Shown one piece after another: positions 1-7,547 of a stretch of DNA of 7,547 nt. Numbering within the stretch: the first letter of the stretch is position 1; each line of letters opens with the position of its first letter. Source of the DNA: a virus (lineage: Duplodnaviria > Heunggongvirae > Uroviricota > Caudoviricetes); IMG/VR virus record IMGVR_UViG_2563366903_000007, positions 1 through 7,547 of that record; one strand, written 5' to 3'. Under the pieces are notes generated by a model. The model did no database searches, was not told the origin of the DNA, and worked only from the letters and a program-made list of their open reading frames with translations. The translations under genes were made by a program, and so were the position numbers.

Positions 1-374
1 GTGGTCTCCACCAGTGACTGCACCCCGAAGGTAACCCGCAGGCGGTCAATGTTCGCGGACGTAATGGTGCGCGTCACCGGCTTTGCCTTCGTCACCTCCA
101 CGCCCAGTGCGGTTTCCGCCCCGGAGGACTCAAAGCCTTCCGGCGGTGTCTGCTCCTGCTCCCCGGCACGCCAGACGGCGGTCACACCGTGTATCACGGG
201 ATTACCGTCCGTGTCCGTAAGCGGGGTTTTGTTCACCAGAATACTCTGCAGTCCCTTCACCGGACCTTCCACCGGTCCCTCACCAATGGCATCAATCACA
301 CTCATCATCTGCGTGGATTTGAGATTATCCTTCGCCTCACGCGGTGTGTGCCCCTTGCCGCCCCCTTTACCCAC
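1..374 (-). CDS. J: Host specificity / central tail fibre protein J, N-terminal 124 codons only; gene continues past the window start
   Basis: Reverse-strand translation from GTG (complement of 372..374) gives MGKGGGKGHTPREAKDNLKSTQMMSVIDAIGEGPVEGPVKG...TRTITSANIDRLRVTFGVQSLVET, near-identical in pattern to the remembered lambda gpJ N-terminus (MGKGSSKGHTPREAKDNLKSTQLLSVIDAISEGPIEGPVDG...TSANIDRLRFTFGVQALVETT). AGGAGAGGGGGA Shine-Dalgarno lies just upstream. Missed by the ORF track because it runs off the window edge. Confidence 0.9.
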   Translation of the reverse strand, partial: MGKGGGKGHTPREAKDNLKSTQMMSVIDAIGEGPVEGPVKGLQSILVNKTPLTDTDGNPVIHGVTAVWRAGEQEQTPPEGFESSGAETALGVEVTKAKPVTRTITSANIDRLRVTFGVQSLVET

Positions 375-417
375 TCTGTCCCCCTCTCCTGTCTGATGTC
401 TGAATCTGTTTATGCCC

Positions 418-448
418 AAAAAACAACAGGCACCCCGGAGGATGCCTG
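418..448 (-). terminator. Candidate rho-independent terminator on the tail-operon strand, between the small ORF and J
   Basis: Minus-strand RNA reads CAGGCAUCC-UCCG-GGGUGCCUG (about 9-bp stem with one G.U pair, 4-nt loop; plus 427..448) followed immediately by UUGUUUUUU (plus 418..426). Hand-folded, no energy calculation. Confidence 0.5.
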
Positions 449-450
449 TA

Positions 451-546
451 TCATGACTGAATAAAAATTCTGAATATCTTCACATTTTCACACACTGACT
501 GTGGCGCGTATAATTTCGCTGCGTTAGTGTTTTTTTGCCGTGACAT
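451..546 (-). CDS. Hypothetical 31-aa small protein (MSRQKNTNAAKLYAPQSVCENVKIFRIFIQS); candidate moron ORF
   Basis: ATG at complement of 544..546 preceded by AAGGAG (complement of 557..562, 10-nt spacer); TGA stop at 451..453 sits 2 nt before the minus-strand terminator hairpin. Below the ORF-track length cutoff. No similarity to anything I recognise; coding status unproven. Confidence 0.3.
   Translation of the reverse strand: MSRQKNTNAAKLYAPQSVCENVKIFRIFIQS
461..514 (+). promoter_or_regulatory. Candidate sigma70 promoter on the plus strand (antisense to the tail operon)
   Basis: Perfect -10 TATAAT at 509..514; -35 TTCACA at 487..492 (4 of 6 consensus, 16-bp spacer); A/T-rich UP-like tract AATAAAAATT at 461..470. 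Predicted transcription start near 521. Confidence 0.45.
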
Positions 547-621
547 AAAAAAACAACTCCTTAACACTAATCTTCATTTGTCTGAATCTCCCGCAGCTCC
601 GCAACTCTGCGGGATTTTTTT
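521..621 (+). ncRNA. Candidate ~100-nt small RNA, antisense to the I-J intercistronic region and to the start region of the 31-codon ORF
   Basis: Bounded by the promoter above and the plus-strand terminator below; contains no ATG-initiated ORF. Predicted 5' A/U stem-loop (GUUUUUUU 529..536 pairing with AAAAAAAC 547..554), a central C/A-rich single-stranded stretch AACAACUCCUUAACACUAAUC, and a 3' terminator hairpin with U-tail, which is typical Hfq-type sRNA architecture. Not verified against Rfam. Confidence 0.35.
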
Positions 622-622
622 A
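589..622 (+). terminator. Rho-independent terminator on the plus strand, 8 nt from the stop codon of I
   Basis: CCCGCAG (590..596) / 10-nt loop / CUGCGGG (607..613) followed by AUUUUUUUA (614..622). On the minus strand the hairpin is preceded, not followed, by the homopolymer run, so it is orientation-specific for plus-strand transcripts. Confidence 0.6.
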
Positions 623-628
623 TGCCGT

Positions 629-1309
629 TTACCCCTGCCGCCCGATAACCACGACCCTTCCGCCCCCGCCTTCATCACGGGTGCTGATGTCCTGAGAGAT
701 ACGTCGTGAACCAACCAGCATTTCCCCGTAAGGCACCGGCATCGGGTTACCCTGGGCAATCATGTTGTCCAGCGAGGAAAAGTACGTGTTCTGTTTACCG
801 TTATCCGTTGCCCTGTATTCCGGTGTTTTTGCCTTCGGGGCCAGCATCTGTGCCACACCGCCCAGTATCATGCTGGCTCCAAGTGAAAACAGCATCGTGG
901 TAGCAGAAAAACCACCGGCTGCCAGGGCTGAACCCCATAACGCCATTGATGCTCCTGCAGTGAAGAAAGACCCCACAATGGCAGCTGCCCCCAGCACAAT
1001 CTGTAGTCCGCCCTTTCCGGCACCGGCCAGTCGCGGCACAATATGGATAACCGTTCCCTCACCCAGTGGTTCGTGAAGGCGGGCATACACCGCCTCCGGT
1101 GCCGTATCCTCACCGGCAATACGTATCTGGTACCAGCCTTCGTTCATCTGACGGCGAAAGCCCGGCATCTGCATCGACAGGGCGCGGATGGCTTCCGCTG
1201 CCGTGTTCACATACAGGCTGAGGCGGCGGCCAAATCGTTGTAAATCCCCGTGAAGGCAGATGCGTGCCAGTGGCGGTGACGCCAGACAGAATGCGTTCGT
1301 CGTTGCCAT
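629..1309 (-). CDS. I: Tail tip assembly protein I (226 aa)
   Basis: Translation MATTNAFCLASPPLARICLHGDLQRFGRRLSL...NGKQNTYFSSLDNMIAQGNPMPVPYGEMLVGSRRISQDIS matches the remembered lambda gpI pattern (ARICLYGDLQRFGRR..., NGKQNTYFSSLDNM...). Position between K and J and the 103-nt overlap with K are as I recall for lambda. GGGAGAGG Shine-Dalgarno upstream of the ATG. Confidence 0.93.
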   Translation of the reverse strand: MATTNAFCLASPPLARICLHGDLQRFGRRLSLYVNTAAEAIRALSMQMPGFRRQMNEGWYQIRIAGEDTAPEAVYARLHEPLGEGTVIHIVPRLAGAGKGGLQIVLGAAAIVGSFFTAGASMALWGSALAAGGFSATTMLFSLGASMILGGVAQMLAPKAKTPEYRATDNGKQNTYFSSLDNMIAQGNPMPVPYGEMLVGSRRISQDISTRDEGGGGRVVVIGRQG

Positions 1310-2659: not shown

Positions 2660-3000
2660 CAGTTCACCACCTGCTCAATCGTACAACTGAAATCACTGTA
2701 CCTGGCGTTATCTGTGACGCTCCACTCCCGGCACACCACCCTCACCGTCCGGTTATGTTTCGGTGGTCGCCACAAAAAGGCACGGTAACCACCATGCCAC
2801 GATAAAAATTCATCCAGCCAGCGCCGGGTTGGTTCATCCGTCACCCGGAACACCGCCTGAAACGTCTTCAGTCTGGCATTAAGTCCCGTCGGTCGGCGCT
2901 GTTCATAACCGTCACCAAACCGAACCCTCACCACCGACGGTTTCTCACTCACCTGCATCCCTTCACGCGGGACCAGATGCAGCGTTTTTATCTCAGCCAC
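2659..3000 (-). CDS. M: Minor tail protein M (113 aa)
   Basis: Translation contains VRFGDGYEQRRPTGLNARLKTF...FLWRPP...IEQVVN, matching the remembered lambda gpM (VRKVRFGDGYSQ...FEQVVN). GTG start overlapping the end of H; 1-nt overlap with the L start. Confidence 0.92.
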   Translation of the reverse strand: MAEIKTLHLVPREGMQVSEKPSVVRVRFGDGYEQRRPTGLNARLKTFQAVFRVTDEPTRRWLDEFLSWHGGYRAFLWRPPKHNRTVRVVCREWSVTDNARYSDFSCTIEQVVN

Positions 3001-6000
3001 TCAGCATTCCTCCGTCACGTCGCATGGACAGCATCACCGCCTGCACCCGCTGGTCAATCAGCTGCACAAGACTGCCTGCCGCCTCCGGCCCTATCTGTCC
3101 GTTAGCGCCGTCATTCTGAATGGCGATGTGGTAGACCGGGGAATACACCAGACCGGCACTGCCGTTCATACTGCCCACCGCGCGTACGCCCAGCGAGCCA
3201 TCCGCCGCCCGGGTCAGGGGCATAATGGCTTCAGGTCCGGCTTCCCCCATCAGCCCGGCCCCTTTTGCAAACGCAAAGTACGTGGGCGTGTCCACAATGC
3301 TGTTGCTGTACGCACTCAGGTTTGCCGAGGTATACACGCCGCCTTTTGCATTGGCCACCGCACCGCCCAGCCAGTCACCAATACTGCCAATAAATCCTCC
3401 CGCACCGGACATACCATTTGCCGCCGTCTTAATTCCGTTGACAATCGCGGCATTCATAAGAACTTTTGAGATTTCCTGCAGCACTGATGAGGCCCAGTTG
3501 CGCCATTCCACTTTATTCCCGTTCAGCATCTCCGTGATGTTATTCACCATCCCTGAGATACCCTCCGTCGCAAGCTGTGCTGCCTGTGAGGCGTAATCGG
3601 ACGCATTATCCACCCAGTTACTGAGCCCCTCCTGCAAGCCTTTCTGCCAGTCCGCACGCTGCGCATCCGATTCGGCATAAAAGGCTGCCTGGTCCTTAAG
3701 GCGTTCGCTCAGATACTGCGCGTTCTGTGCCCGTGCCTGTCTGTAAAAATCCTCACTGATATCCCCGGTCTGATACTGAGACTGAAGGTCCGCATCCTTC
3801 TGGCGGAAGCTGTCGCGGATCTGCTGCAACTCCCGCATGCGTTCCCTGGCTCGTTCTCCCTGCCCGTATCCCAGCAGTTCGGCTTCATTTGATGCACGCG
3901 CAGCCACATTATCATTCTTCAGGGTCTCTTCCCGGGATCGCAACTGTTCCCGGATTTTTTGCTGGTCAATCAGGGCCGCGTTACGCAGCAGTTCCTGCTT
4001 CTGCATCTCCGTCAGGGTTTTCAGTTCGCCCTGCGCAGTCTGGTACTTCAGCTTCGCCAGCTCTGTATTCTGACCCGCCAGTGCCAGTTGCTCTTTCTGC
4101 TGCTTCAGTAGCCGGGAGAAACTGTCTTCCGCTTTTTCCGTCTCTGATTTTCCACCCCGGGATTTAGGTTTGTTCGCCTCGTTATTACGCCAGGCTTCCA
4201 GAGCATTACTGATATAACGCTGTCTCGCCTCCTGATACGAATCCCCCACAAAACCAAGGTCATCCGCCGCATACCCCAGCCGGGCACGCTCTTTTTCCTC
4301 CCCCTTCAGTCGGGACAGGGCCAGCTCACGTTCTGTTTTTGTCAGGGCGCTCTGCTGTTTATCATCCAGGGTGGCCTGCGGCAGCCGTAACGGTACATTC
4401 ACCAGTCCCTGACGCTGCTGAAGCAGTTCATTCCCCAGCCCCAGCAGACGGTTGAATTCCGTATGCTGACCGTTCATAACCAGCATGGACTGGTACACCT
4501 TATTCTGCTCTGCCGCCTGCTGACGAATTAACGCCACACGACGGTCTTCCAGCCCGGCAAGCACATCCTGAATGGACTGCGCTTTTTCCTGCATCTGTGC
4601 CAGACGGGACTGCTCAACGGCAAGCTGCTCTGTTGCCTGAGAAAGCCCTTCCGTTACGGTCTTCACCGATGTCAGATGGTTTATCATGAATCCGTCACCG
4701 GTTGTCCAGCCAGGGTTAGCCAGAACATACTGATATCCAGCGATTTTTTCCTGCAGGGATTTCACCCGGCTGGCCTGTTCATCAATCAGCCGGTTCTGCT
4801 CTGCCAGAGCCGCCCGTGTTCGTCCTTCATTATCTGAGGCTTCAGGCAAAGACATTGACGGCGTTTTATGCGCGATTTCATCTATCGTCAGTGCATACTG
4901 GCGCGCTGACTCCCTGGCCTGCTCCTGATTCTGGTACAGCGTATACCATGCTGCTGCCCCCAGCATCACCAGTCCGGGTACGCCACCAACCAGTCCCAAC
5001 GCACCAGTCATCAGACGTGAGCCCACCGCCGTTGTACTGTTCAGCGCATTCTGGGCTGCGGTTCTGGCAGCAATATTTCTGTTCAGGCGTTCCTGTGTGG
5101 CCACCAGACGGGCTTCTGCAGCAATCTGCATCTCCGTCCCGCGGGCTGCCGCCACAGCCTGCTGTGCACGGTACACGGCTGCCCTTGCCCGCGCCGTGGC
5201 AATCTGCGTCCCCCTGAGCTGTGCTTCCGCCAGTGCCACTTCATTACGTGCTGCCGTCACAAGTCCTGCCGTGGCAGACACCGCTCCGGAGGCCATATTG
5301 CCAAAGTACCGGGCAACCCCGACGGCAACCAGCGCCCCCGCGGCTGTTGCCACATTATCAATATTACCGGCAACACCGTTCAGCACGCCGGAGAGCGTTT
5401 TTGTCACCCCGCTGGCCTCATTCGCGCCACCCACCCAGGCCATAAAGGCGTTTTCCACCTTTGTGATACTACCGGAAACCGTTTCCGGCATGGCCGCATA
5501 TTCATCACGCAATACCCCCAGCTGGCTGATTAACGCAGGGACCACTTTATCCGCTGTCAGTTTTCCGTCATCCGCCATTGCCTTCAGATCTTTACGGGCC
5601 ACACCCATCCCCGCAGCAAGCGCGCGGATCACCCGGTCGCCATTTTCGTTAACAGCATTAAATTCTTCGCCACGCAGTACACCCTGTGCCAGTGCCTGGC
5701 TGAGCTGGGTGATCACCGAACCGGATTCCGCAACTCCAGCCCCTGACAGTTTCAGTCCTGTCGAAATGGCCTCCGTCACCTTCAGCACATCATCAGCACT
5801 GTAACCATATTCACGCATTGAGGCTGCCGAGCGGGCAAACAGGGCCGCATTATCTGAAAATGCCGTGCCCGTCCGCTGGCTGATATCCATCAGCACTTTC
5901 TGTGATGACGAAAATTCATCGGATGACTGCGACGCCTGTTTCAGTCGGGCATTCACGGAACTCCATTCATCGGCCAGAGAAATCAGGTGCCCGGTGGCAA

Positions 6001-6235
6001 AGGCACCTGCAAATGCCCCCGCCGTTCCGGCAACTGAAGCGCGGATTTCCGTCAACTGGCTGTTCAGCTCAGCCAGGGCGCGTCGCTGCTCCCGGGCGAC
6101 TGCGGCAGCCTGACGCCCGCCATTCTGCAGGGTCCGGTAATATTCACTGCCCATGCGGGAAGCCCGCTGGATCTCCGACTGGAATGACTGCGAATTTGCC
6201 GAAATTTTGATAATCAGTTCACGTAACGTCGCCAT
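2993..6235 (-). CDS. H: Tail tape measure protein H (1080 aa)
   Basis: Largest ORF, located between G-T and M. Typical tape-measure composition: long Ala/Gln/Glu/Arg-rich coiled-coil regions, a hydrophobic Gly-rich segment (LMTGALGLVGGVPGLVMLGAAAWY), and a C-terminal region (TPTYFAFAKGAGLMGEAGPEAIMPL) resembling the lambda gpH C-terminus as I recall it. GGAGAAAGG Shine-Dalgarno before the ATG at 6233..6235. Confidence 0.95.
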   Translation of the reverse strand: MATLRELIIKISANSQSFQSEIQRASRMGSEYYRTLQNGGRQAAAVAREQRRALAELNSQLTEIRASVAGTAGAFAGAFATGHLISLADEWSSVNARLKQASQSSDEFSSSQKVLMDISQRTGTAFSDNAALFARSAASMREYGYSADDVLKVTEAISTGLKLSGAGVAESGSVITQLSQALAQGVLRGEEFNAVNENGDRVIRALAAGMGVARKDLKAMADDGKLTADKVVPALISQLGVLRDEYAAMPETVSGSITKVENAFMAWVGGANEASGVTKTLSGVLNGVAGNIDNVATAAGALVAVGVARYFGNMASGAVSATAGLVTAARNEVALAEAQLRGTQIATARARAAVYRAQQAVAAARGTEMQIAAEARLVATQERLNRNIAARTAAQNALNSTTAVGSRLMTGALGLVGGVPGLVMLGAAAWYTLYQNQEQARESARQYALTIDEIAHKTPSMSLPEASDNEGRTRAALAEQNRLIDEQASRVKSLQEKIAGYQYVLANPGWTTGDGFMINHLTSVKTVTEGLSQATEQLAVEQSRLAQMQEKAQSIQDVLAGLEDRRVALIRQQAAEQNKVYQSMLVMNGQHTEFNRLLGLGNELLQQRQGLVNVPLRLPQATLDDKQQSALTKTERELALSRLKGEEKERARLGYAADDLGFVGDSYQEARQRYISNALEAWRNNEANKPKSRGGKSETEKAEDSFSRLLKQQKEQLALAGQNTELAKLKYQTAQGELKTLTEMQKQELLRNAALIDQQKIREQLRSREETLKNDNVAARASNEAELLGYGQGERARERMRELQQIRDSFRQKDADLQSQYQTGDISEDFYRQARAQNAQYLSERLKDQAAFYAESDAQRADWQKGLQEGLSNWVDNASDYASQAAQLATEGISGMVNNITEMLNGNKVEWRNWASSVLQEISKVLMNAAIVNGIKTAANGMSGAGGFIGSIGDWLGGAVANAKGGVYTSANLSAYSNSIVDTPTYFAFAKGAGLMGEAGPEAIMPLTRAADGSLGVRAVGSMNGSAGLVYSPVYHIAIQNDGANGQIGPEAAGSLVQLIDQRVQAVMLSMRRDGGMLSG

Positions 6236-6282: not shown

Positions 6283-6962
6283 TCATGACTGTGCTGCAAA
6301 GCTCAGCGCGTCTTCCAGCGCCGTAAACGGATCCACCTCCGGCTTGTCCTCATCCTCGCCCCAGCAGAGCATGGCGTCCTTCAGTGCAACATTCATCCCC
6401 TGTGCCCCAAAAACCGCTTTCACGATCTGTGCATTACGGATATCCCCGCGCTCATCACCCAGCGGGGATACCCTGTCGAACTCCATCCACATCATCGCCT
6501 CGCTCGCACTCAGGCTGTGCTGCAGTTCGGATAAGGTGCGCCCCAGACGGAGCGCAAGTCGCATCAGAAAGCGAATTTCCGGGCGGGCTACTTTTTTCTG
6601 GCCGACTCTGCATCAGCGATCAGTTCCAGTGCCTGACGCAGCAACCGGGCATGTACCGGACCATAGACGGCCAGCACCTGCTCACGGTCGTCCGGAGTGA
6701 ACACCCGCTGCAGATCCGTATCACACAGGACATCGCAGAACAGCGTCACATCCGCTTCCAGGTTACGGCGGGTTTTCGCCACCACCGACAGGGTATCGTC
6801 ATCCTCTCCATCACCATTGAGCACTTCCTGCCACAGATACCAGGCCTCTGCCGAAGGCTCCCGCAGCACCACGCTGACATTACCCCATTCCGGCACCTTC
6901 ACCGTTTTATGACGAAACCCTGACAGTCTGGCCAGCGCCAGCGTTTTCAGATCTTTTGCCAT
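6283..6962 (-). CDS. GT: G-T tail assembly chaperone fusion made by programmed -1 ribosomal frameshift (G frame 6597..6962 joined to the -1 frame 6283..6597)
   Basis: After the slip at AAAAAAG the -1 frame continues VARPEIRFLMRLALRLGRTLSELQHSL... to the stop at 6283..6285, which is exactly the track ORF 6283..6564 extended upstream. The T frame has no ribosome-binding site or sensible independent start. The G/G-T frameshift is conserved in long-tailed phages. Confidence 0.8.
6588..6962 (-). CDS. G: Tail assembly chaperone G (124 aa)
   Basis: Small acidic protein (DGEDDD stretch) directly upstream of the tape measure gene, ending ...LIADAESARKK with a slippery heptamer in its last codons, as expected for the gpG chaperone. 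Confidence 0.9.
   Translation of the reverse strand: MAKDLKTLALARLSGFRHKTVKVPEWGNVSVVLREPSAEAWYLWQEVLNGDGEDDDTLSVVAKTRRNLEADVTLFCDVLCDTDLQRVFTPDDREQVLAVYGPVHARLLRQALELIADAESARKK
6591..6597 (-). other. Slippery heptamer A AAA AAG for the G-T -1 frameshift
   Basis: Minus-strand sequence GCC AGA AAA AAG TAG; the heptamer A-AAA-AAG (complement of 6591..6597) lies in the last two codons of G immediately before its TAG stop. Confidence 0.75.
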
Positions 6963-6967
6963 AAGCC

Positions 6968-7547
6968 TTATCCGCCCGCACCATTAACCGTTACTGTACA
7001 CGCATCAGAGGTAATGCTCTGCGGCTGTTCTGCAGAATCCGTTACCTCGCAGGTATAAGCCCCCTTATCACCTGACTGCGTATTGGCTTTACTGAAAGTG
7101 TCAGTAGTCTGTCCCTCTACCGGCTGACCATCCTTCTTCCAGGCGTGTTTATAAGGCGGCGTTCCCCCGTTGACACTGACTGACATTGTCAGCAGCGCAC
7201 CGGTATTCACGGTAAGTGTCTTATCCAGATTTTTCCCAAACGCCAGCGGTACCACATAGGACACCGGTTTACCCTTCAGACGCAGTGAAAACGTTGCAGC
7301 CACCACGCCGTTGGTACCGGATGACCAGGTGTGCTGACGCACTTCCGCCAGGAACTTAAAGCCCTTACCGGACGGAAACTGCACCTTAAACGCATACACC
7401 GTGTCATTGTCATAGGCATCACGCAGGGCGTTCTGGGCCTGATTCAGATAAAAATTACCCGACATGGAAATCTCGGACGACGCCCCCAGACCGTTGATGT
7501 TCTCCTGCTCTGTGGAGCAGAGCGTGGTCACATCAATATCCTGTTTC
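6968..7547 (-). CDS. V: Major tail (tube) protein V with C-terminal Ig-like domain; 5' end lies beyond the window
   Basis: Position immediately upstream of G. Motif YAFKVQFPSGKGF...GKP resembles the lambda gpV core (YKIRFPNGTVDVFRGW) from memory. The C-terminal ~80 residues (PYKHAWKKDGQPVEG...GAYTCEVTD) look like an Ig-like fold. The frame stays open upstream of the track's GTG at 7529..7531 to the window edge, so the true start is probably outside the window. Confidence 0.82.
   Translation of the reverse strand, partial: KQDIDVTTLCSTEQENINGLGASSEISMSGNFYLNQAQNALRDAYDNDTVYAFKVQFPSGKGFKFLAEVRQHTWSSGTNGVVAATFSLRLKGKPVSYVVPLAFGKNLDKTLTVNTGALLTMSVSVNGGTPPYKHAWKKDGQPVEGQTTDTFSKANTQSGDKGAYTCEVTDSAEQPQSITSDACTVTVNGAGG

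Follow-up and report, generated by a model that had tools for sequence, protein, structure and literature searches.

What occupies the gap between tail genes I and J in this phage DNA, and is it part of the tail operon or a gene in its own right? The stretch that we analyzed (the window, 7,547 nucleotides in all) carries long open reading frames on the minus strand only, and these correspond to a lambda-type tail operon: V (6968-7531), G (6588-6962), T (6283-6564), the tape-measure gene H (2993-6235), then M, L, and K between H and I, the tail assembly gene I (629..1309; Pfam Lambda_tail_I, 3.9e-16), and the 5' part of the tail tip gene J (1..374; Pfam FNIII-A_GpJ), which runs off the window. 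The translation of J starts with VGKGGGKGHTPREAKDNLKSTQ, and its counterparts are annotated as J or host specificity protein in PhiR12_1, VT1-Sakai, Sakai, and E2348/69. Because the stop codon of I lies at 629-631 and the GTG start codon of J at 372-374, the spacer between them spans 375-628, the 254 bp that an earlier note on this DNA had delimited, and it is the sole sizeable noncoding gap in the window. Its J-proximal end includes a purine-rich stretch, GGAGAGGGGGA (379..389, minus strand), which by eye we take to be the Shine-Dalgarno region of J.

The spacer differs from its surroundings in composition. The GC fraction of 451-588 is 0.348 and that of the whole spacer 0.429, against 0.584 in I and 0.612 in the available part of J, so the hand count in the earlier note, about 35% at 451..588 against roughly 60% in the flanks, agrees with the measured 34.8% against 58-61%. 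The same note put I and J only about 60 bp apart in lambda, and the lambda spacer is indeed 60 bp long, without the unit described below. We searched the window for a tRNA or tmRNA gene as possible cargo and found none.

What the spacer does contain is a compact transcription unit on the plus strand, opposite to the tail genes. A sigma-70 promoter at 487-514 (-35 element TTCACA at 487-492, 16-nt spacing, -10 element TATAAT at 509-514) matches 11 of 12 consensus positions, in keeping with the plus-strand promoter noticed earlier. It is the single site in the 7.5-kb window that matches at least 11 of 12 positions, and in shuffled sequence the expectation is 0.029 such sites for a window and 0.007 for a spacer. 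Upstream of the -35 element lies a conserved A/T-rich segment (461..486). On the same strand, scanning, folding, and a search for inverted repeats all identified a Rho-independent terminator at 589..621, consisting of an 8-bp stem (589-596/607-614), a 10-nt loop, and a run of seven U residues (615-621). This terminator lies approximately 70 nt downstream of the promoter, and its last U, at 621, falls 7 nt before the I stop codon. Given the geometry of promoter and terminator, the predicted primary transcript is 101 nt long (521..621), with a start inferred 7 nt after the -10 element and a 3' end in the U-run.

A second terminator faces the other way. At 418..449 on the minus strand, in the sense of the tail operon, scanning and folding identified a 10-bp stem (449-426) followed by UUGUUUUUU down to position 418; its predicted energy is -22.3 kcal/mol (z = -3.9), and it ends 43 nt ahead of the J start. 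Read along the plus strand, the order is therefore minus-strand terminator, promoter, transcribed unit, plus-strand terminator, and gene I. Both terminators had been placed correctly beforehand, to within a nucleotide (589..622 and 418..448), but their description as convergent has to be reversed: they stand at the outer edges of the insert and face outwards, so that each ends transcription exiting it, and the convergent pair is formed by the small-RNA gene and gene I. Terminator-like sites number 13 in the whole window, against 6.2 expected.

The spacer RNA has close relatives that are already known. [quoted passage not shown] 2021, PMC8550237; Zhu, Shabalina and Storz 2026 preprint). The coordinates given for it in that literature are 1466343 to 1466261 on the minus strand of NC_011601.1. 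In this genome I and gpJ are plus-strand genes; the end of I is at 1466255 and the start of gpJ at 1466496, which places the 3' end of PasB 6 nt from the I stop codon. The sequence AGCTCCGCGATCACTGCGGGATT, which is the reverse complement of the northern probe for PasB, falls on the terminator hairpin. In the window, the stretch 536..621 (plus strand) aligns with PasB at 74 identical columns out of 88, and an alignment of the whole spacer with those of E2348/69, Sakai, and PhiR12_1 has a mean column identity of 87%. The window and the E2348/69 locus share the I-J position, the opposite strand, a 3' end a few nucleotides from the I stop, the arrangement TTCACA-16-TATAAT, a CCCGCAG/CTGCGGG terminator with seven U residues, and an AUCUU core. 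The window variant differs in having an additional GAATC before the terminator, another loop, another segment after the U-run, and AACACUAAUC rather than CACAUUGAUC beside the core. Since the variant is 84% identical to PasB and departs from it next to the conserved core, its targets may differ.

In E2348/69, PasB has been confirmed by northern blot, its level drops in an hfq mutant (log2 fold changes of -6.8 and -2.4), and 37 RIL-seq interactions have been recorded for it. Expression values for that strain put pasB at a baseMean of 482-1082, whereas I (4.8) and J (15.0) are nearly silent. Expression and Hfq dependence of PasB have been demonstrated for the E2348/69 copy only.

A second set of relatives comes from enterohemorrhagic E. 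coli (EHEC). Three Hfq-CRAC peaks of strain Sakai, EcOnc22, EcOnc23, and EcOnc24, were assigned to prophages Sp15, Sp14, and Sp11, all on the plus strand, and EcOnc22 gave a northern band of about 85 nt that was destabilized without hfq (Tree et al. 2014, PMC4104026). On NC_002695.2, these positions correspond to the I-J spacers of the three prophages; there the tail genes are on the minus strand, and the three spacers are identical, 240 bp long. The published coordinates refer to an older record, and without correction the peak falls on the J-proximal hairpin; the offset is approximately +139 to +143, as measured at 1.94 Mb with AgvB1 and the HnrS/EcOnc11 terminator as anchors rather than at the three EcOnc loci themselves. 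With an offset of 128-139, the Sakai peaks project onto the window equivalent of 527-608, which is the body of the small RNA. Over 73 nt, PasB matches the Sakai spacer at 81% identity. The EcOnc22-24 loci thus have in common with the window the I-J junction, the antisense orientation, and homologous sequence, while the Sakai spacer differs in its length, a weaker -35 element, AATAAT as the -10 element, and deletions of 7 nt and 4 nt in the RNA body. We found no statement in the literature searched that PasB and EcOnc22-24 are the same element: the PasB entry of Table S6 carries no note, and the 2026 preprint does not mention EcOnc. This cross-reference is a small addition.

Overall, the spacer is very probably an autonomous small-RNA gene, an ortholog of pasB, situated between I and J and directed against the late operon. 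We are less confident about its mode of action, which by analogy with the orthologs would be that of an Hfq-dependent, trans-acting small RNA made in the lysogen. The RNA would be about 86-101 nt long. The position of the 5' end varies with the basis on which it is estimated: the promoter points to approximately 521 (101 nt), and the annotated 5' end of PasB corresponds to 536.

We compared 21 distinct variants of the small RNA. Conservation is concentrated in the promoter, the first six bases of the transcript, the AUCUU core, and the terminator stem, which is invariant in 20-21 of the 21; the remainder of the body varies by substitutions and small indels. The terminator hairpin with its seven U residues is likely the Hfq-binding 3' module. 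Directly ahead of it, a single-stranded segment (568..588) is the candidate seed, and it includes the invariant AUCUU at 570-574 (columns A50-T54 of variant alignment A2); the seed proposed for PasB is likewise placed directly upstream of the terminator (Zhu, Shabalina and Storz 2026 preprint). The minimum free energy fold and the inverted repeats also suggest a 5' stem (523-531/563-571) that encloses a U-run (530-536) and an A-rich run (545-557). In the 21 variants, 87% of the cells of this stem are paired, compared to 26-53% when the partners are slid, but its covariation is weak and not clearly above controls, with 35-40 of 500 shuffles reaching the same level. RNAalifold recovers only the invariant terminator, and if the mature 5' end were at 536, the 5' stem would be lost. 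Rfam returned nothing meaningful for the spacer and its flanks at E <= 10, and no match at gathering thresholds in the window and two related loci. As the RNA has no Rfam family, we base its membership on pairwise homology and synteny.

We then determined how widely the element occurs. BLAST searches with the spacer, as the earlier note had suggested, returned 147 phage records, nearly all of them Stx-converting or related lambdoid phages, and 1,796 of 5,426 complete E. coli genomes. The median number of such places in a positive genome is 2, and the maximum is 10. At these places nothing is annotated except an occasional "hypothetical protein." The I protein is at least 95% identical in 128 phage records, and among the phages whose I protein is of the lambda type (about 66% identical) is lambda itself, which lacks the insert. 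A pattern scan of a genome collection proved too generic, with 27 of 32 matches being unrelated terminators; its true homologs were limited to E. albertii (2 matches) and three short contigs that are probably contaminants.

To align the junction itself, we used 78 viral contigs in which the C terminus of I (80 aa) and the N terminus of J (100 aa) are 90-99% identical to those of the window. Three forms of spacer emerged. Class A, the form found in the window, measures 234-260 bp (37 loci). Class B, at 338-344 bp (38 loci), keeps the pasB module but has the J-proximal ~85 bp swapped for an unrelated segment of ~190 bp. In class C, at 848-851 bp (3 loci), an antisense sodC gene for Cu/Zn superoxide dismutase is followed by a pasB copy without -35 and -10 elements. 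The pasB promoter and the A/T-rich segment before it are thus kept in classes A and B, and the promoter is replaced in the sodC class; full-length matches to the sodC form occur in 547 of the 5,426 E. coli genomes. The homology between classes A and B starts at approximately ATAAAAATTCTGAAT, in the A/T-rich block just upstream of the -35 element, and we therefore divide the spacer into a small-RNA module at ~461-628, whose left edge is that block, and a J-proximal module at ~375-460. Given that other prophages carry sodC at this same junction, the I-J junction behaves as a cargo site.

The terminator that precedes J can be considered separately in this light. Its hairpin and U-run are retained in all 10 distinct class-A variants. 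The 60-bp spacer of lambda has an operon-sense hairpin and U-run of its own (-20 kcal/mol, z -3.7), and the J-proximal module of class B forms a very stable hairpin that is flanked by a U-run on either side (-32 and -29 kcal/mol). Our terminator scanner misses these last two, probably because their A and U runs pair, and we folded both directly. In the sodC class, reading the sequence by eye revealed no operon-sense terminator before J. Recurring as it does in nonhomologous sequences, this feature probably belongs to the junction as such, and the minus-strand terminator of the window is probably part of the J-proximal junction module, outside the small-RNA gene and upstream of its promoter. 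The terminator ahead of J noted earlier is real, but it is not peculiar to the insert, given its counterparts in lambda and in the unrelated class-B segment. We also considered G·U asymmetry in the J-proximal hairpin as proof of the strand on which it functions and rejected it: both kinds of intermediate occur, which leaves the one-sided U-run as the only pointer to the operon-sense direction.

The model that we propose takes its anatomy from the homology, synteny, and presence/absence polymorphism described above. Host RNA polymerase with sigma-70 would initiate from the promoter at 487-514, at an inferred start near 521, and stop at the Rho-independent terminator at 589-621, yielding a product of about 86-101 nt. 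This RNA would carry the U-run, the A-rich run, and, ahead of the terminator, the conserved AUCUU core at 570-574 in single-stranded form as the presumed seed. Judging from the ortholog literature, which supplies the expression, Hfq dependence, and RNA-RNA interactions, the RNA would be produced during lysogeny, with the tail genes silent, be stabilized by Hfq, and act in trans by pairing with mRNAs of the host and its accessory genome, the targets themselves being predicted rather than observed. Ordinary transcription in the operon sense would be halted before J by the terminator at 449-418. In lambda, late polymerase modified by Q ignores such terminators, and by the same token Q-modified polymerase may read through this one; a need of J for Q-dependent read-through, as previously suggested, would fit lambda biology. 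We found no physiological function or validated target of PasB or EcOnc22 in the literature searched.

An RNA that is a perfect complement of the late tail mRNA in its I-J intercistronic stretch could also work mainly in cis. Pairing during lytic growth might lead to RNase III cleavage or an altered I:J ratio, the strong pasB promoter might collide head-on with late transcription, or, conversely, the burst of late mRNA might mop up the small RNA upon induction. At every locus examined pasB runs antisense to the operon, its 3' end lies right next to the I stop codon, and in the window an exact 11-nt direct repeat (TGTCTGAATCT, 579-589 and 397-407) creates a second, perfectly matching site in the J 5' leader. 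That second site, however, is absent from E2348/69, Sakai, and most other variants. An antisense RNA working purely in cis has no need of a conserved core, but both AUCUU and the Hfq-type 3' module persist in an otherwise variable body; PasB has its 37 RIL-seq interactions in trans, with no I or J chimeras among the interactions listed; and a promoterless pasB copy persists in the sodC class. We therefore consider a mainly cis-acting RNA improbable compared with one acting in trans.

The remaining alternatives question whether the spacer encodes an RNA at all, or only that. The small ORF that the earlier note saw in the insert does exist, as do others: spacer ORFs of 26-60 aa include one of 38 aa at 567..451 (minus strand), which was automatically annotated as a hypothetical protein in PhiR12_1 (where the annotated CDS at the spacer has 32 aa), one at 527..709 (plus strand), and an operon-sense mini-ORF starting MKISVKELF, whose MKI[SN]V start recurs in several variants with a GGAG 10 nt upstream. 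None of them behaves as conserved cargo. E2348/69 lacks the ATG of the 38-aa ORF, a deletion removes it in Sakai, changes in homopolymer length shift the reading frames and produce peptides of 12-39 aa with unrelated C termini, and the MKI start codon is missing from the TTTGT and TTCGT variants, which represent roughly half of the loci. Moreover, the MKI[SN]VKELF start is the mere complement of the conserved core of the small RNA, and RefSeq has no CDS at the spacer in Sakai or E2348/69, so a small protein is a very unlikely cargo and the noncoding RNA stands in its place. Even less credit is due to a type I toxin-antitoxin system, in which an operon-strand mRNA for a toxic peptide would end at the minus-strand terminator and be repressed by the overlapping plus-strand RNA. 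Outward-facing terminators and overlapping units on opposite strands do resemble hok/sok-type layouts, but the spacer has no minus-strand promoter matching at least 9 of 12 positions, the peptides lack both conservation and hydrophobic character, the EcOnc22-24 loci of Sakai have no minus-strand Hfq peak listed, and Rfam gave no match to a toxin-antitoxin RNA. It is just as hard to credit that this is an ordinary intercistronic region in which promoter- and terminator-like sites arose fortuitously in AT-rich sequence. Consensus scans alone are no proof of function, as the twofold excess of terminator-like sites in the window illustrates, but a promoter of this quality is expected far less than once per shuffled spacer, the unit is kept across hundreds of prophages and absent from lambda, and orthologs yield a discrete, Hfq-bound RNA in two pathotypes.

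Returning to the small-RNA gene as the preferred reading, we can extend it in a direction that we regard as speculative and, on balance, unlikely: the I-J junction of Stx-type lambdoid prophages might be a dedicated, insulated cargo slot, and PasB might have a second role in cis. Under such an arrangement, the interchangeable cargoes would be pasB alone, pasB with a second antisense-strand module, and sodC with a promoterless pasB. An operon-sense terminator precedes J in both forms that have the pasB promoter and in the 60-bp spacer of lambda. Since the late mRNA is a perfect complement of PasB, PasB would be titrated or destroyed upon induction, or would itself trim I-J expression. If true, this role would couple a host regulon controlled by the small RNA to the lysis-lysogeny state.

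The identification has several consequences. A multicopy prophage small-RNA family is present in about one-third of complete E. coli genomes, and both EPEC and EHEC have related members that are abundant partners of Hfq. A stretch that has been left blank or mislabeled as a hypothetical protein now receives its correct label, PasB and EcOnc22-24, names from separate literatures, are tied to one locus, and the tail I-J junction is a recurrent cargo site, for the small RNA or for sodC, in Stx-type phages.

How does the element compare with known systems? The earlier note called it a moron-like cassette. Familiar morons include lom and bor of lambda and those of HK97 and HK022. Like such elements, the spacer is present or absent between collinear phages at one junction and has its own promoter, its own terminator, and a deviant composition. 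Morons as described by Juhala et al. 2000, in the form in which PMC4104026 cites that work, also share with the spacer the extra DNA between otherwise adjacent genes and the expression from a repressed prophage, the latter known for the spacer through its ortholog. Classical morons, however, encode proteins, among them proteins that benefit the lysogen, whereas the spacer has no conserved ORF and its cargo is a noncoding RNA transcribed against the late operon. The moron-like reading is thus largely right, given the promoter-terminator unit, the composition, the absence from lambda, the expression of the ortholog, and the behavior of the junction as a cargo site; it is the nature of the cargo and the geometry of the terminators that depart from what was proposed.

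Among the prophage RNAs of EHEC, the anti-sRNAs AgvB and AsxR (Rfam RF02702 and RF02703) and HnrS (EcOnc10-12) resemble PasB in being short, Hfq-associated, and multicopy, in having their own terminators, and in lying in late regions of Stx-type lambdoid prophages. They have no sequence similarity to the spacer RNA and differ in location: AgvB and AsxR occupy the moron site at PR', HnrS lies downstream of the lysis genes, and pasB lies at I-J. We considered and rejected identity with AgvB or AsxR (PR' location, unrelated sequence, and Rfam models that do not match the window even at E <= 10), with HnrS, which came into question for its copy number but maps downstream of the lysis genes, and with svsR, which lies at the 3' end of cI. 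The prophage sodC cassette has in common with pasB the I-J insertion site and the antisense orientation, and a pasB-like sequence follows sodC; it differs from the window, in which sodC is absent, in its protein cargo, its 848-851-bp spacer, and a trailing pasB without -35 and -10 elements. The element is accordingly no new kind of system: it is a member of the PasB/EcOnc22-24 family already described in the prophages of pathogenic E. coli.

The J 5' leader of the window, the part of the I-J spacer that precedes the J start codon, shares an exact 11-nt direct repeat, TGTCTGAATCT, with pasB. One copy lies in the leader itself (397-407) and the other (579-589) in an unpaired region of the sRNA, directly 5' of its terminator. 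Through this repeat, the window form of PasB has a second perfect match, located in the J leader. By our estimate, chance alone would produce approximately 0.01 such 11-nt repeats per 311 bp. The variant of phage PhiR12_1 carries a near-identical copy (9 nt), and the repeat is absent from EPEC E2348/69, EHEC Sakai, and most other variants. The J leader also contains a tandem heptamer, TGTCTGA, present in two copies in the window (388-405) and in four copies in the spacer of locus L030, which is 260 bp long because of them. The copy number of this heptamer constitutes a small length polymorphism adjoining the J ribosome-binding site.

The I-J spacer takes two further forms among the 78 related viral contigs. 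Class B, found in 38 of them and represented by L025 (2182-2523), has an unrelated module of approximately 190 bp where the window form has its J-proximal ~85 bp. This module includes a very stable hairpin (L025 2390-2425; -32 and -29 kcal/mol) flanked by U-runs on both strands, as well as a weak promoter-like site on the antisense strand (TTGCCA-18-TATCCT, L025 2492-2463). The module had no match in Rfam; it could encode a second RNA of approximately 70 nt, in tandem with pasB. In class C (L062 2182-3032; also L065 and L080), the Cu/Zn superoxide dismutase gene sodC lies between I and J on the antisense strand (Pfam Sod_Cu, 3.9e-32). The pasB copy behind it has lost both its -35 and its -10 element and might be expressed only when transcription reads through the weak terminator of sodC. 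Full-length class-C matches were detected in 547 of 5,426 complete E. coli genomes.

Outside E. coli, I-pasB-J DNA of the E. coli type, with 83 to 94% identity to the window, was detected in short contigs of non-enterobacterial assemblies: Streptomyces flavalbus (L107, 3.4 kb), Parendozoicomonas haliclonae (L099, 460 bp), and a Clostridiales MAG (L113, 3.4 kb). These most likely reflect contamination or mis-binning. Apart from these three, true homologs among the species representatives were found only in Escherichia albertii (L104 and L121).

Tree et al. 2014 (PMC4104026, Table S2) give EcOnc coordinates that refer to an older Sakai record. With AgvB1 and the 66-nt HnrS unit (L004 5946-6011) as anchors, the conversion of these coordinates to NC_002695.2 was found to require an offset of approximately +139 to +143 nt, as measured at 1.94 Mb; Table S2 positions reused directly on NC_002695.2 would misplace the EcOnc peaks.

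Elsewhere in the tail operon, the tape-measure protein gene (2993-6235, minus strand) encodes 1,080 amino acids and combines HK97-type domains (Phage_HK97_TLTM and TMP_3) with lambda-type C-terminal domains. Lambda H has 853 amino acids; therefore, the tail of the window phage may be longer than that of lambda. A further variable cargo site of this operon lies upstream of K, where PhiR12_1 carries a gene resembling an antirepressor gene, together with a small ORF (L001 4121-5035); in the window, K directly follows L.
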